The notes: generated by a model not told the origin, from the letters alone. 64,000 nucleotides of DNA from Eledone cirrhosa (GCA_964016885.1 OZ024740.1:102548001-102612000); one strand, 5' to 3'. Positions 14,095 through 51,600 are shown, numbered from the stretch's first letter. Translations and numbers: made by a program.

Positions 14095-14920
14095 TGCACC
14101 AGTTGCTTTCACTTCAATTTATTATAAATTTAGGAATTTATAAATTTCCGGTTGGTTGGTTGGTTCCACAACCAGACGATTGTTCATATATTGTCAAAGT
14201 TCTTTTGTCACATATTCTGTGACCTCTTCAGTGACTGGGGATTCTTTTCTTTGTTTTTGTATGTGTTGTGTGCTTAGTTTGCTCATGTGTTACATCCGGG
14301 TGTCTGTGTGTGTTTATATTTGTTATTTACATGTTATTGGTTGGTTGTTTGTTCTACGTGTGTGTGTGTTTTCATTTTGTCCTTAATTGTAAGTTGTGAT
14401 GTTGCTGTTCCATTCATGTTTTCTATTTAATTTTGGTTGGAGTTCATTTATGTTTATTGCTTCTGTGATTTGTCTAAACATTGCGTCTTTTCTGTGTGTA
14501 GATTCTATTTTTATTTCTATGTTCTCTAATTTACCCTCATGTTCTATTTTAACATATTGGTGGAGTACAGATGATTCTTTATTATCTTGAAGCTCTCGCT
14601 AGTGTTCATTTATCCGTTCCCCTATACTACGAGCTGTCTCACCTATGTACACTATATTCTTATCTCTACATTGTCCTTCAGTACATCTTATGCTATATAC
14701 TACATTTCTAGTTTTACAGTTAATATGGGGGCTTAGTTTACAGATTATACATTTCTTATCTATACAGGGAGGTCTTTGAAAAGGGTATGTATTGCTAATA
14801 AGTGTTTTTATGGAGGTACCTGGTCTTATTGGCAACATGACCCTCCTAAAGCATAACAATATCGGTTTCAACACACATTCTCAGATAAAGAATCTTGCTA
14901 AACAAATTCAGAAACGAAAT
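14095..14920 (-). mobile_element. Penelope-like element 3' part: GIY-YIG endonuclease (one in-frame stop at 14599-14601) and 3' UTR; Neptune-like
   Basis: CIDKKCIIC...CKTRNVVYSIRC..C..YIGETARSIGERINEH*...HQYVKIEH...RQITEAINI...LNRKHEW, final stop near 14383. Confidence 0.85.
14193..14235 (-). ncRNA. Minimal hammerhead ribozyme remnant (GAAA mutated to AAAA)
   Basis: GTCA-CTGAAGA-G-GTCACA/gaata/TGTGAC-aAAA-GAAC-T-T-TGAC; the paralog at 20483-20502 keeps GAAAGAGCTT. Confidence 0.65.
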
Positions 14921-16254
14921 ATGTATATATATATATATATATATATATATATATATATATATAGGACTTATATAAGTCCTACTAAATTTTAAATATATAA
15001 AAAACATTTATCAATTGATACAACTGATGTGGTTGATCTAAATATATGAATAATAGAATGCATGTGAAATACTCATGAATGGTTTGTAATTTAAGCAGTT
15101 GTATTATAATTCTTAATGTGTGCCTAGGAGATAATTACCAAACAGTAATTAATAAAATCATTTTCTTATCTAATTAACATTAAAATATTTTTATTCATTA
15201 TTTCTATTCCATTTTTTACTCCAAAAGAGAGCCCCTTGCACAGCATGGCAAGGTGTTATATATTTAAATAAACAAATGCATCTTGTTTCATATTCATCAT
15301 TTTTTTTTTATTTAAATAATCCAACTTTTGGTTTGCCAATAAGTGTATTATTTAATACAAAATTGTTATATTACCATATTCCAACATACTTTATTTGTAT
15401 TTTTTTTTTACTTCAAATAACTTTCAGTTATTAAAAAAAAAGTAATATTTTATATTTAACCATTGTATTTAATCTCTTTTTTTTTTTTGTATTCTTTTAT
15501 TCTTTTATTGGTTTCAGTCATTGGACTGTGGCCATACTTGGACACTACCTTCAAAGGATTTAGTTGTTCATATAAATCCTAGTATTGATTTTCAATTCTG
15601 GTACTTTTATGTTTATTGAATTGCTATGTTACCTTTTTTTTTTTTTGTTTTTTTTTCTTTTTTTTTTGCACTGATTAAACAGACACAAATACATGCATAT
15701 ATGTGGATGAATTAGGTGTTTTGCTTCAGCAAAACTTGAGTAGCAGTCAACAAAGGTGCATATATATATTAAGAAAGAGAAATTAAAGTTTCAGTTTAAC
15801 ATATTTTATTCATAATCACGTGTAGCACATTTCACAAATGAACCACTCGGGGCCTTAATTGATTACATTCTGCTTAGAATCTGGGATTAATTTGCTCATT
15901 AGAGACAGTGGAGATCAGAATCCAAATATCTTGATCTCTGTTTAGACTTGCCTATATGTAGGATTTTGACTATATCCAGAAGTCATGTTATGATTTGGTG
16001 GGATTTAGTGAGTAAGGTTGCCTCCATACTCTGATGAAGTTGAACAGGTGTAAAGATGAAAGTGGAGATCATAATGAAAAGAAAAAATACAATACAGTAA
16101 AATAAAGAATAAGGTTAGGGGGACACCCAGAGCTGGGGGTGTACAAACGAACATACAATAATATAAGATAAAAAAAACAAATAAAAAAATAAATAAATAT
16201 ATAAAAAAGTGAAAAGTGTCACAACAAAGAGCACCCAGCCCAAACTGTAATGTG

Positions 16255-16456
16255 GTCATATAGGTGTCATGACAAAAAGTGCCCAGTCCACACTAAATGT
16301 GGTTGGTGTTAGGAAGGGCATCCAGCCATAGAAACCAAGCCAAAACCAGTTCTGTATGAGCAAGACACGGTCATTGGACCTGGCTTGTTTCACAATGCGA
16401 CAGCTCGTCTAACCCATGCTAGTGTGGAAAATGGACTTTAAATGATGATGATGATG
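16255..16456 (+). mobile_element. RTE-tail / SINE 3' fragment
   Basis: ggtgttaggaagggcatccagc...aacccatgctag...(gat)n. Confidence 0.75.
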
Positions 16457-16464
16457 TAAGAATA

Positions 16465-47900: not shown

Positions 47901-47948
47901 GATATATATATATATATATATATATATATATATATATATATATATAAT

Positions 47949-48642
47949 AATATATTTAGAAACACACAGATACATGCGGACACACACATATATACATGAA
48001 TGCATCCGCACCCAACTGTGAGTTAAGGGTGCCAACTTCACCGATGTTGCTCAATGAATGACCGGGACAGACCAATTCAGTTGAACCAGACTGAACCAGT
48101 ATCAGAGTTAAAAATACATTATGAAGAGAGAAGAAACATTTAGATATAATTAGTAATAAAATGTATCATACCTAAACTGTTCCTAAATTCCTCGACTACG
48201 TAGTTTCGTGGCATAAACAAAAACAATATATCATAAAGATATAGAGTCCCTGCGAGGTCTGCCGACTTATCAAGAGACGCGTCTACACGACGTGAGAAAG
48301 AATCCCAAAAGGCGGAGGGGGAGATAGTCACGCGATATAACGGTCGAGAAACAGAGCTAAGCCTCTTATAACCACGAAGAAAATACCACGGAGGTGGAAG
48401 GGGTATTCATATCGAGGCCGCAGAAGAGGTGGTGAAGAAGGCTAGAAGTATGAGTAAAGGAAGCTTTCCAGTTGTCCTCACACTTCAAAGATTGCTCGAC
48501 CAGAGGGAGTTATTAACAATATATTTAGAAACACACAGATACATGCGGACACACACATATATACATGAATGCATCCGCACCCAACTGTGGATACATTTTA
48601 TTACTAATTATATCTAAATGTTTCTTCTCTCTTCATAATGTA
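47949..48642 (-). mobile_element. 569 bp terminally redundant ORF-less unit with inverted cap and degenerate hammerhead; duplicate at 50597-51290
   Basis: 72 bp direct repeats 47949-48020 and 48518-48589; 53 bp inverted pair 48115-48167 and 48590-48642; hammerhead-like motif 48190-48277. Confidence 0.62.
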
Positions 48643-51600
48643 TATATATATATATATATATATGTATGTATGTATGTATGTGTGTGTGTGTGTGTGTGTG
48701 TATATATATGTATATATATATATGTATATATATATATATGTATATATATATATGTATATATATATATATGTATATATATATATGTATATATATATATATG
48801 TATATATATATATGTATATATATATATATATATATATATATATATATATATATATATATATATATATATATATATATATATATATATGTATGTATGTATG
48901 TATGTATGTATGTATGTATGTCCGGGAGAGATGACCCCTTAGCCTTTGTCAAGGCAGAATTCTAGGAGAAGGAAAACTCTGATATAACACCTGCAACCCT
49001 GATGGTATCCAATGATGTTGACTTGTTCTTCTTTTTGGTAAATATCATCTTGGTTAAGAGAGTGAGACTGGCTTTGTGCAGTGCCTTTGCTCACTATAAA
49101 AGCTTCACGGCACAGGCATTGCTTTATATCTGGACTCTCTCTGCACTTGTCGTCACATGGTACCATGGGCCCAGCACTATGTGTCAGTAATTGTCACAAG
49201 TGTAGTGTTTGTACCAGAGTTTTCAAGTCGCTGGCTGGACTAAAAAGTCACACTCGTTCAGCGCATCGGTAGGGGTTCTCCTACATGGATATAAAGTAGT
49301 GGCCGTACTCGAAAACGAGTTGGCAGCCACCATGTATGTATGTATGTATGTATGTATGTATGTATGTATGTATGTATGTATGTATGTATGTATGTATGTA
49401 TATATATATATATATATATATATATATATATATATATATATATATATATATATATCTATATATATATATAGGGTAGGAACTCCATTCTCTGCCCCAAATG
49501 CAAACAATGGGTACACAAGAGATGTAGCGGGATTTCAGGAAGCTTAATTAAGAATGTAGGATTCACATGTGCTGAAACAGCAAGCAAACAGCCACAGGAA
49601 ACAAGTACCACCAATCTCTGGGAGGGCCCTGTAGAAACAGTAGACAGCTTCTGCTACCTAGGTGACCGAATTAGCAACGGAGGTGGGTGCTCAGAAAGTA
49701 CAATAACTAGGGTAAGAACGGGATGGAAGAAGTTTAGGGAACTACTACCACTGCTAGCTGCAAAAGGCTTCTCCCTCAGAATGAAAGGCAGACTGTATGA
49801 TGCGTGTATCCGAACAGCGATGTTGCATGGTAGTGAGACCTGGGCGCTGAAGGTGGAAGACTTACGTAGATTAGAGAGAAACGAAGCCTGCATGCTCCGA
49901 TGGATGTGTAACAGTAATATACGTGAACGACAAAGCATAAAGGAATTGAGAGAGAGACTGAGCATAAGAGGAATCAAATGCTGCGTGCAGGAGAGGCGGT
50001 TACGCTGGTATGGACATGTGATGCGTATGAAGGATGACAGCTGCATAAAAAGGTGCAGAGCACTAGAAGTTGATGGAAACCGCGGAGTGGGGAGACCCAA
50101 GATGACTTGGGATGAGGTGATAAAAGCCGACCTTACCCAACTACACCTCTCAAAGTCAATGACACACGACCGTGACTTCTGGCGTCACGCAGTAATACAG
50201 GGTACCCGACCTCCCATGGGTACATGCTGAAGCATATAAACAATATGCCCCCCCCCCCCACCGCAAGGTGGTCGTGGAGGTGCCACGGCAAAAAAGCACC
50301 CAGCCCACACTGTAAAGTGGACGTGTAGGCGCCACGAAAAAGCACCCAGCACTCACTGTAAATGAGGTTGGTGTTAGGAAGGGCATCCAGCTGTAGAAAT
50401 CAAGCCAGATCAGTTCCTGTATGAGCAAGGCATGGTCAGCCGACCAGACACTGCCCACAACAGGACAACCCGTCTAACCCATGCTAGCGTGGAAGAACGG
50501 ACGTAAAACGGTGATGATGATGATGATAATGATATATATATATATATATATATATATATATATATATATATATATATATATATATATATATATAATAATA
50601 TATTTAGAAACACACAGATACATGCGGACACACACATATATACATGAATGCATCCGCACCCAACTGTGAGTTAAGGGTGCCAACTTCACCGATGTTGCTC
50701 AATGAATGACCGGGACAGACCAATTCAGTTGAACCAGACTGAACCAGTATCAGAGTTAAAAATACATTATGAAGAGAGAAGAAACATTTAGATATAATTA
50801 GTAATAAAATGTATCATACCTAAACTGTTCCTAAATTCCTCGACTACGTAGTTTCGTGGCATAAACAAAAACAATATATCATAAAGATATAGAGTCCCTG
50901 CGAGGTCTGCCGACTTATCAAGAGACGCGTCTACACGACGTGAGAAAGAATCCCAAAAGGCGGAGGGGGAGATAGTCACGCGATATAACGGTCGAGAAAC
51001 AGAGCTAAGCCTCTTATAACCACGAAGAAAATACCACGGAGGTGGAAGGGGTATTCATATCGAGGCCGCAGAAGAGGTGGTGAAGAAGGCTAGAAGTATG
51101 AGTAAAGGAAGCTTTCCAGTTGTCCTCACATTTCAAAGATTGCTCGACCAGAGGGAGTTATTAACAATATATTTAGAAACACACAGATACATGCGGACAC
51201 ACACATATATACATGAATGCATCCGCACCCAACTGTGGATACATTTTATTACTAATTATATCTAAATGTTTCTTCTCTCTTCATAATGTATATATATATA
51301 TATATATATATGTATGTATGTATGTATGTATGTATGTATGTGTGTGTGTGTGTGTGTGTGTGTGTGTGTGTGTGTGTGTGTGTGTGTGTGTGTGTGTGTG
51401 TATATATATGTATATATATATATGTATATATATATATATGTATATATATATATGTATATATATATATATGTATATATATATATGTATATATATATATATA
51501 TATATATATATATATATATATATATATGTATATATTTCTACTGAGTTAGGAGTAAAGTAGACTAATAAGACCCAATTCACAATAATTTTTGCTTTAATGA

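Follow-up and report, generated by a model that had tools for sequence, protein, structure and literature searches.

Within a 64,000-nt stretch of the Eledone cirrhosa genome (GCA_964016885.1 OZ024740.1:102548001-102612000; hereafter the window, in which positions are counted from the first nucleotide), six different hammerhead ribozyme motifs very probably mark insertions of Penelope-like elements (PLEs) into TA repeats: three form the ends of truncated protein-coding elements and three are located in units without open reading frames (ORFs), the latter likely being copied in trans by the reverse transcriptase (RT)-endonucleases of PLEs. Copying by PLE enzymes is the most likely origin of the ORF-less units because they show the same two-site end signature as the coding PLEs, and it is the use of one each of these fixed ends that ties the ORF-less units, which we class as retrozymes, to PLE priming. 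An original prediction, made from the sequence of the window, had proposed that small ribozyme-carrying RNAs of six families are copied in trans by PLE RT into (TA)n, with one family linked to a coding sequence and five being non-coding. ORF linkage changes this split to three and three: trans-copying is supported for families 3, 5, and 6, whereas families 1, 2, and 4 are simply the pseudo-long terminal repeat (pLTR) ends of coding PLEs, a case that the prediction itself had considered.

Hammerhead folds were found at all eight predicted coordinates, each of which marks one end of stem I, with predicted cleavage after positions 14197, 25518, 39687, 40410, 40697, 44270, 48194, and 50842. All six motifs are type I hammerheads of the PLE kind, and each originates from a genome-wide repeat family (Table 1). 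A type I descriptor matched 5 motifs in the window, compared to a mean of 0.14 (maximum 2) in 100 local shuffles; 4 of these matches lie at predicted sites and 1 is new (24247). At 14.2, 40.4/40.6, and 44.2 kb, mutations prevent the window copies from matching the descriptor, while same-family copies elsewhere in the genome pass it, and family alignments mend the defects of the window copies. The predicted CTGANGA...GAAA core does not apply to the 14.2 kb copy (AAAA for GAAA) and the 40648 copy (A for C3), both of which carry private mutations, nor to the 48.2/50.8 kb copies, whose core TTGATAA (U3-A8) is characteristic of the family (found in 52 of 63 contexts, the remaining 11 lacking a core at that distance). 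Further core features are likewise family-wide: in family 5, stem II is closed by U.U; families 2 and 3 combine C.A at this position with the triplet GUU; and family 1 has an additional G following A9.

The stems of families 3 and 5 covary, as a check proposed with the prediction had asked. Across family 3 subfamilies, 4 pairs in stems I and II are changed on both sides, one of them occurring as A-U, U-A, and G-C, and the stems of family 5 contain 5 covarying pairs; the covariation scores of both families were reached by 0 of 500 shuffles. Since the aligned rows (14 of 68 distinct family 3 variants and 12 of 29 distinct family 5 variants, the window copy included in each) were picked by hand and are related, we take this as support for the stems rather than as a probability. 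The five palindromic stems III are as originally listed. For these, stem III is predicted to be unstable within a monomer (+1.5 to +6.0 kcal/mol) and stable as a self-duplex (-3.2 to -12.9 kcal/mol), which is in line with the dimer model and makes cleavage as a dimer via the palindromic stem III plausible. Rfam identified no hammerhead above its gathering threshold in 8 loci with family-typical copies; a single U6 was matched, a U6 small nuclear RNA copy next to a family 4 insertion (L062:2300-2400, minus strand). For the window itself, no hammerhead was present among the 150 of 377 Rfam matches listed, which comprised microsatellite-driven microRNA noise and one tRNA piece.

For each family, the 40 best genome candidates were scored and 30 loci were taken. 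For the ORF-less families, approximately 70 to 120 loci out of thousands were seen per family (only 40 for family 5). Locus coverage revealed a 5'-truncation gradient in families 1, 2, and 4 and a bounded unit in families 3, 5, and 6, and in longer genome stretches, RT and GIY-YIG ORFs lie upstream of families 1, 2, and 4. The motifs at 14.2, 25.4, and 40.4/40.6 kb are thus the 3' ends of truncated protein-coding PLEs, and the 25.4 and 40.4/40.6 kb copies, which had been taken for short non-coding units, are stubs of long ORF-bearing elements. A same-strand PLE protein match ending at most 700 nt upstream was found for 39 of 49 copies of family 1, 23 of 39 copies of family 2, and 1 of 40 copies of family 4, these counts referring to copies and not to independent insertions. 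The low number for family 4, in which the single match belongs to a neighbour, results from its long 3' untranslated region (UTR); in 5 loci, its own Hydra-type endonuclease was identified 1-2 kb away, behind the 3' UTR. ORFs in locus L222 were excluded as family 4 proteins, as they belong to a neighbouring element. The 3' UTR of family 4 also contains a variable tandem array with a unit of approximately 190 nt (L219, 1.5 kb before the hammerhead).

The encoded proteins allow a putative classification. In family 1, the linker CIDKKCIIC (CX4CxxC, of the CX2-5CxxC class) precedes a C-terminal GIY-YIG domain (Pfam PF01541), which points to a Neptune/Nematis-type PLE without separating these two clades; we presume that it is Neptune rather than Nematis. 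The endonuclease part of the window copy is 94.6% identical to the family endonuclease, and this copy stops at the proximal site, adjoining a TA-rich run. [quoted passage not shown] Based on these protein motifs, families 2 and 4 appear to be Hydra-type PLEs; an assignment as Nematis-like was rejected, since the motifs fit Hydra. Among 7 proteins scanned against Pfam, the four Hydra-type fragments gave no match.

Judged by their sequence, families 3, 5, and 6 are non-LTR retrozymes, i.e., non-autonomous PLEs with a predicted RNA activity. Their units of 530 nt (family 3), 430 nt (family 5), and 595 nt (family 6) lack ORFs, the longest ATG-initiated frames comprising 66, 51, and 48 amino acids, respectively. 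The distance from ribozyme to ribozyme was 529-531 nt in 13 of 14 intervals of family 3, 428-440 nt in 5 of 7 intervals of family 5, and 595 nt in 39 of 45 intervals of family 6, so that each unit carries one type I hammerhead, and some copies contain at least 2 consecutive units (in family 5 based on 5 intervals only). Accordingly, the 39.7 kb copy is a stub of a 530-nt unit instead of a host unit of about 170 bp, as had been predicted. The motifs at 48190 and 50838 belong to one insertion that was doubled by a local 2.6-kb duplication (~46319-48879 repeated at 48951-51535; 698 of 699 nt identical). Family 3 yielded 9,211 and family 6 yielded 7,135 exact motif matches, with reversed controls giving 0, and 40 of 40 scored genome candidates of family 5 matched. 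The GC content of the units is 0.35-0.42, and predicted circles are well paired (z -3.8 to -9.2). Family 3 subfamilies are 72-92% alike, while family 6 copies are mostly 97-100% identical to their consensus, suggesting that family 6 is young. The units of the families have no alignable DNA in common except for a 15-nt core match and TA-rich patches, which largely agrees with the prediction that no flanking sequence is shared. The features of plant LTR retrozymes, namely type III hammerheads located in long terminal repeats, were not found, as every motif belongs to type I and the repeats form partial tandems that can end at either of two sites. A self-joining contig of approximately 620 nt (depth 8) from runs X4 and X6 was rejected as a family 6 circle, because a neighbouring RTE LINE (long interspersed nuclear element) yielded one long contig at a depth of 8-17 in the same runs, and trace genomic DNA collapsed to consensus explains both. 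No RNA data set was listed as containing the units, a negative that has no bearing on their expression.

In contrast to the coding families, a same-strand PLE protein match within 700 nt upstream was rare or absent for these units (2 of 110 copies of family 3, 0 of 56 of family 5, and 0 of 102 of family 6). Both linked copies of family 3 derive from one chimeric locus (L258:780-940), in which the 3' part of a Hydra-like element, from a family with its own U3-A8 hammerhead, is joined to a family 3 unit with no TA in between, possibly by a template switch during reverse transcription; this locus was therefore rejected as the coding parent of family 3. Likewise, L364 and L375 were rejected as coding parents because they contain neighbours, the PLE in L375 having its own ribozyme. 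As the first loci had been selected by score, a replicate sample of 40 family 3 and 40 family 6 loci was taken in chromosome order from the exact-pattern lists, skipping 3 loci that had been sampled earlier. Here, a same-strand PLE match within 2 kb was found in 2 of 40 loci of each family; the 2 family 3 cases are neighbours with (TA)n in between, and the 2 family 6 cases lie, according to the mapping, beyond an inverted arm ending in (TA)n. The linkage check proposed with the prediction thus links families 1, 2, and 4 to PLE ORFs but not families 3, 5, and 6.

All six families share two fixed 3' ends downstream of the ribozyme. Counted from the predicted cleavage site (+ denoting 3' of the cut), the proximal and distal ends lie at +80/+245 in family 6, +62/+177 in family 3, and +219/+275 in family 5, as well as at +156/+216, +50/+157, and +56/+155 in the coding families 1, 2, and 4, respectively. 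These ends are those of the known PLE tail. While the 3' ends are fixed, the 5' ends are variable. TATATA/ATATAT directly follows the canonical 3' ends in 71 of 74 cases in family 6, 86 of 106 in family 3, and 45 of 52 in family 5. Partial-tandem and inverted 5'-truncated copies, a tail at one end, and a microsatellite target, i.e., the characteristics of PLE-type mobilisation (PMC8557442), were found in all six families. The "inverted caps" are second copies in opposite direction, the outer end of which lies at one of the two sites.

The two sites are used in a paired manner. Two segmental duplicates were dropped before counting, as were one local duplicate and any single cluster below 90% identity or 100 nt, and six complex insertions were excluded. 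Head-to-head insertions then numbered 25 in family 6, 42 in family 3, and 16 in family 5; of these, 23, 34, and 9, respectively, combined a proximal with a distal end, 0, 2, and 1 had two like ends, and 2, 6, and 6 remained unclassed. One of each end was therefore present in 23/23, 34/36, and 9/10 of the classifiable cases (66/69), whereas simple insertions used the two sites about equally (11:12, 11:15, and 11:12). In the replicate sample, 15 of 17 head-to-head insertions of family 3 were mixed (0 alike, 2 unclassed), as were 15 of 19 of family 6 (1 alike, 3 unclassed), i.e., 30 of 31 classifiable insertions after removal of one duplicate locus. The coding families 1, 2, and 4 showed mixed ends in 7/10, 8/9, and 7/11 insertions and like ends in 1, 0, and 3, the others being unclassed; the family 4 pair in the window is itself an exception to the one-each rule. 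Arms frequently exceed the length of a single unit (36 of 79 in family 6; in the replicate, 25 of 63), with the longest comprising approximately five units. Rare alleles were common to both arms in 20/74, 74/404, and 52/324 cases (17-27%), compared to approximately 2-3% expected by chance, which fits one template as well as gene conversion. Furthermore, (CT)n runs were found between the distal end and (TA)n in 17 of 55 cases in family 3, 0 of 41 in family 6, and 0 of 29 in family 5, and also occur in families 2 and 4. These runs are new, as if RT had stuttered at initiation, and may seed CT microsatellites. In families 3 and 6, the stretch separating the two start sites contains a clear hairpin (z -3.9 to -5.4), which is weak in families 4 and 5 (-2.3 and -1.5); being absent in families 1 and 2, it was rejected as a general feature.

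These regularities could be explained by the following mechanism. A PLE enzyme, probably a dimer, would introduce a nick into each strand of (TA)n, which is self-complementary. From one of these nicks, reverse transcription would be primed at the proximal internal site, and from the second at the distal one, in most cases with a UA match of 1-6 nt and probably on the same RNA. If both complementary DNAs (cDNAs) were kept, they would be joined 5' to 5' and form the inverted cap, while a single retained cDNA would result in a simple insertion that either includes or lacks the tail. It appears from the one-each rule that, within a single ribonucleoprotein particle, each of the two active sites uses a different start site. 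PLE RTs are not known to contain RNase H, and one RNA could therefore serve both active sites. Because cDNAs cross the ribozyme junction for up to approximately five units, a circle or an uncleaved multimer is needed as template; most likely, this would be a circle generated by hammerhead cleavage, as a dimer via the palindromic stem III, and subsequent ligation. Given the conserved cores and the presence of circles in other animals, we consider a circle the somewhat more probable of these two templates.

With respect to the enzyme partners, the end geometry of family 3 (+62/+177 compared to +50/+157 and +56/+155 in families 2 and 4) and the (CT)n at its distal ends make a Hydra-type enzyme its most likely partner, while partners of families 5 and 6 are guesses. 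For family 6, the closest end geometry makes a Hydra-like coding family in L338-L356 (approximately 350-450 nt beyond the query), which has a U3-A8 hammerhead of its own with the palindrome ACGTACGT and ends at +60 and ~+226, a candidate, albeit without common sequence. In this partner test, families 3, 5, and 6 gave no alignable match to families 1, 2, and 4 or to the L338 family, the remaining PLE families of the genome being unsurveyed. In its widest form, which we put forward only tentatively, the proposal would be that the near-strict pairing of ends reflects an asymmetric PLE dimer, which primes a single RNA, probably a circle, at a separate assigned site for each nicked (TA)n strand. 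PLE tails, inverted arms, and tandems would then generally originate in this way, there would be direct genomic proof that animal retrozymes are circles copied by PLE enzymes, and the C.A/GUU hammerheads of families 2 and 3 would represent an undescribed protein- or dimer-dependent variant.

Several observations weigh against this interpretation. No coding PLE with a sequence common to family 3, 5, or 6 was found among the sampled loci, and the rows underlying the covariation of families 3 and 5 were selected by hand and are linked by descent. Most rare alleles are not common to arms or units, and in families 3 and 5, divergence within insertions is about as high as between them (2.8 vs 3.2% and 3.5-4.0 vs 3.5%). 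An excess of 5' ends just after the cut was seen in family 3 only (22/102, p 2e-4; 6/71 in family 6 and 6/49 in family 5) and was rejected after the replicate yielded 7/51 and 4/56, the first result probably being due to the query; there is thus no genomic sign of cleavage in vivo. Moreover, the ribozyme of the one reconstituted PLE is reported to be dispensable for insertion, unprocessed RNA is its main substrate, and its start site is not homologous to the target (PMC11167929), while 8 of 9 Xenopus retrozyme dimers remained uncleaved in vitro (bioRxiv 10.64898/2026.07.22.740005).

Some of these points favour a different template, namely an uncleaved linear tandem transcript that is lengthened by template jumping, with the hammerheads of families 3, 5, and 6 rarely cleaving or serving as a protein-bound structure. 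We regard this as possible but doubtful, and it concerns the template step only. Besides the unreplicated 5'-end excess, it is supported by ribozyme mutants that leave insertion in vitro unaffected and by the lack of RNA-seq ends at the cut site in the reported data (PMC11167929), by low or no cleavage reported for most tested metazoan motifs, and by the C.A closing stem II and GUU triplet of families 2 and 3. However, the core letters of family 3 remain conserved among subfamilies with a similarity of only 72-92%, and the double change to U3-A8 preserves the C3-G8 tertiary pair. Moreover, insertions reach approximately five units, whereas copying of linear RNA tends to shorten, and retrozymes of coral, mussel, and axolotl are reported to accumulate as circles (PMC7229834), so that a circular template remains our preferred reading. 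That families 3, 5, and 6 are likewise pLTR pieces of coding PLEs, the ORF-bearing copies of which were not sampled, is very unlikely. While families 2 and 4 also look non-coding in the window and yet proved to be coding, and only a small fraction of the thousands of loci was sampled, the tail of families 3, 5, and 6 is followed by the next hammerhead at a fixed spacing and not by an ORF, and the few PLE matches in the replicate are separated from the units by (TA)n, in family 6 according to the mapping.

Slightly less probable still is that the tandems are local satellites, i.e., solo pLTRs that multiplied through unequal crossing-over or slippage and whose spread was due to DNA recombination among TA tracts rather than to RNA. 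Local duplications do exist (in the window and in L027-L030), local amplification has been discussed for retrozymes (bioRxiv 10.64898/2026.07.22.740005), and rare alleles are common to units within one insertion. However, the copies are scattered over many contigs, with fixed 3' and variable 5' ends and with 5'-to-5' inversions having one of each end, as in coding PLEs; since DNA recombination does not predict such end polarity, this explanation is largely refuted. Finally, chance matches in AT-rich repeats are extremely improbable: Rfam is blind to the motifs and three window insertions fail the strict descriptor, but the excess over shuffles, the family-wide conservation, the covariation, and the fixed place at PLE 3' ends all contradict such an origin.

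Non-LTR retrozymes and their interpretation as non-autonomous PLEs have been published before (PMC7229834; bioRxiv 10.64898/2026.07.22.740005), the latter source covering 35 genomes with no mollusc and linking retrozymes to PLEs through co-occurrence and pLTR similarity. Thus, the system described here is of a known kind, and its families are further members. As in these animal retrozymes, the units are ORF-less tandems with one type I hammerhead each and a GC content below 45% (35-42% here), range from monomers to multimers, have well-paired predicted circles, and co-occur with PLEs. At 430-595 nt, they are longer than the 150-450 bp given in PMC7229834 and lie inside the 51-972 bp given in bioRxiv 10.64898/2026.07.22.740005. 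Unlike in the published non-LTR retrozymes, as far as described there, the ribozymes are of the PLE type (palindromic stem III, variant cores) instead of canonical, and no pLTR homologue was found; furthermore, the accessible descriptions in both sources do not mention that retrozymes end at two fixed sites, form head-to-head arms, or target (TA)n. A literature search revealed no description of cephalopod retrozymes, the accessible part of the squid genome paper merely counting 235 Rfam hammerheads, and no paper on the paired use of two PLE ends. It also revealed no report of these families, with Repbase, Dfam, and Lunse et al. 2017 being outside its reach.

The coding families can be compared to Hydra-clade PLEs as far as these are covered by the accessible part of PMC8557442. 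Family 2 resembles them in RWR for RWK, DKT, CxCX5C, CxxC and CxH around the endonuclease end, the C-terminal GIY-YIG, the hammerhead, and (TA)n, and family 4 in CxCX5C and CxH. However, the tails of Hydra-clade PLEs comprise 30-40 nt compared to approximately 100-110 nt here, and the hammerhead of Hydra-1_Obim, the sole octopus family in that part, differs from those in the window. None of the six ribozyme signatures was found in the accessible supplement of PMC8557442, in which line breaks could hide a match. Compared to Neptune/Nematis PLEs, stem III of family 1 is not a perfect palindrome. With regard to the ribozymes, PLE hammerheads with the U3-A8 variant (schistosome PLEs), an extra base, and palindromic stems III have been described (PMC4209133), as have U3-A8 and U.U (U10.1-U11.1) variants (PMC3088659). 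Like such minimal PLE hammerheads, the motifs found here are type I with a short stem I, a long stem II, a palindromic stem III in five families, and an extra base after A9 in family 1. While G10.1-C11.1 is reported to be highly conserved (PMC4209133), the subfamilies of families 2 and 3 retain C.A together with U17, a variant that does not occur in the accessible parts of PMC4209133 and PMC3088659 and that may nevertheless be known, Lunse et al. 2017 having been outside the comparison.

In vitro, the Poseidon PAc protein, for which a dimer is predicted, cleaves the two strands of AT-rich DNA and extends each of them from two internal RNA start sites, which bound the PLE tail (PMC11167929). 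The families described here resemble this system in having two fixed 3' ends downstream of the hammerhead that bound a tail, an AT-rich target, and use of both strands. However, the accessible account of Poseidon PAc reports no difference in start site between strands and no target homology, whereas here, in vivo, the strands nearly always take different sites, mostly with a short UA match to (TA)n, and ORF-less units are included. The paired use of two start sites in coding and non-coding families is thus a quantitative regularity that sharpens the mechanism and constrains models built on the one reconstituted PLE. As it is shared by ORF-less retrozymes and coding PLEs of one genome, this rule represents a mechanistic fingerprint of PLE priming and addresses the open questions of how animal retrozymes move and what role hammerheads play in PLEs. 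Being young and abundant, family 6 is a good test substrate. For annotation, it should be noted that Rfam overlooks these hammerheads. No host function of these elements is indicated.

Table 1. Hammerheads, PLE-derived insertions, and related features in the window.
Feature	Position	Strand	Description
Hammerhead 1	14193..14235	-	Extra G after A9; 6-bp stem II; non-palindromic stem III AGAACT; CUU triplet; G12 mutated in this copy
Hammerhead 2	25406..25522	+	C.A at stem II base; stem II domain of ~90 nt; palindrome ACAATTGT; GUU triplet
Hammerhead 3	39682..39764	-	C.A at stem II base; palindrome ACTAATTAGT; GUU triplet
Hammerheads 4	40458-40405 (-) and 40648-40702 (+)	both	Palindrome ATATATAT
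Hammerhead 5	44234..44276	+	U.U at base of 4-bp stem II; palindrome ACTAGT; GUA triplet
Hammerhead 6	48190..48277	-	U3-A8 core (TTGATAA); bulged stem II; palindrome ACTACGTAGT; GUC triplet
Family 1 insertion	14050..14826	-	Putative Neptune/Nematis-type PLE, 5'-truncated; 3' part of GIY-YIG (14826-14386), followed by pLTR and hammerhead
Family 1 inverted arm	14824..14918	+	Distal-site end, then (TA)n
Family 2 inverted arm	25221..25273	-	Proximal end, adjoining (TA)n
Family 2 stub	25274..25679	+	pLTR and tail with distal end; 3' part of putative Hydra-type coding PLE
Family 3 stub	39625..39800	-	176 nt of 530-nt tandem unit; proximal end; (TA)n on both sides
Family 4 pair	40385..40754		Head-to-head pLTR stubs of putative Hydra-type coding PLE with long 3' UTR
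Family 5 insertion	44015..44539	+	1.2 copies of 430-nt unit; distal end, then (TA)n
Family 6 insertion	47945..48589	-	1.1 copies of 595-nt unit; 26-nt deletion; distal end in (TA)n
Family 6 inverted arm	48590..48643	+	Proximal end, then (TA)n
Family 6 second copy	50593..51291	-	Inside local duplication
Family 1 remnant	20409..20542		Small, inverted; tail piece and half a hammerhead
Hydra-like PLE RT remnant	16683..17190	+	32-39% identical to family 2 protein; outside all six insertions
Further hammerhead family	24239..24301	+	Intact; 8-bp stem I; A17; motif at 24247
Seventh family stub	39812..40240	+	Unit of ~620 nt, non-coding in 30 loci; window copy stops just before the core

Besides the six families, to which the prediction had been confined, the window contains the intact motif at 24247 and the stub of a seventh family. 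The 24247 family has relatives with varied stem II in other loci, and no ORF link within 700 nt was found in 26 copies. In the seventh family, most copies end at +268 (L092-L120), and the hammerhead contains a stable 7-bp stem III hairpin (-5.3 kcal/mol), by which it may work as a monomer. A loose scan of approximately 340 TA-rich loci yielded 555 matches with dozens of distinct hammerhead types; in many of them, U.U, C.A, or A-U takes the place of G-C as the closing pair of stem II. Numerous PLE families use the TA tracts of this genome as landing sites. In a relative of family 5 (L111:3246-3290, minus strand), U.U and A17 jointly become C.A and U17, as in families 2 and 3, while U.U occurs with U17 in other hammerhead types, so that the coupling of U.U and A17 is not strict.

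The window is almost entirely composed of repeats, comprising (TA)n tracts, LINE pieces, and mariner remnants. One LINE (25679-32125), which is located exactly at the end of the family 2 stub, contains minus-strand endonuclease and RT ORFs (26995-29895) and is flanked by 498-bp repeats at 25679-26635. A tandem duplication of approximately 2.5 kb (33700-38600) includes a 47-bp minisatellite with 13 copies (34601-35227 and 37121-37747). The tRNA-like Rfam match at 46021-46078 on the minus strand, which at 32.1 bits is barely above the threshold, is probably the head of a short interspersed nuclear element.

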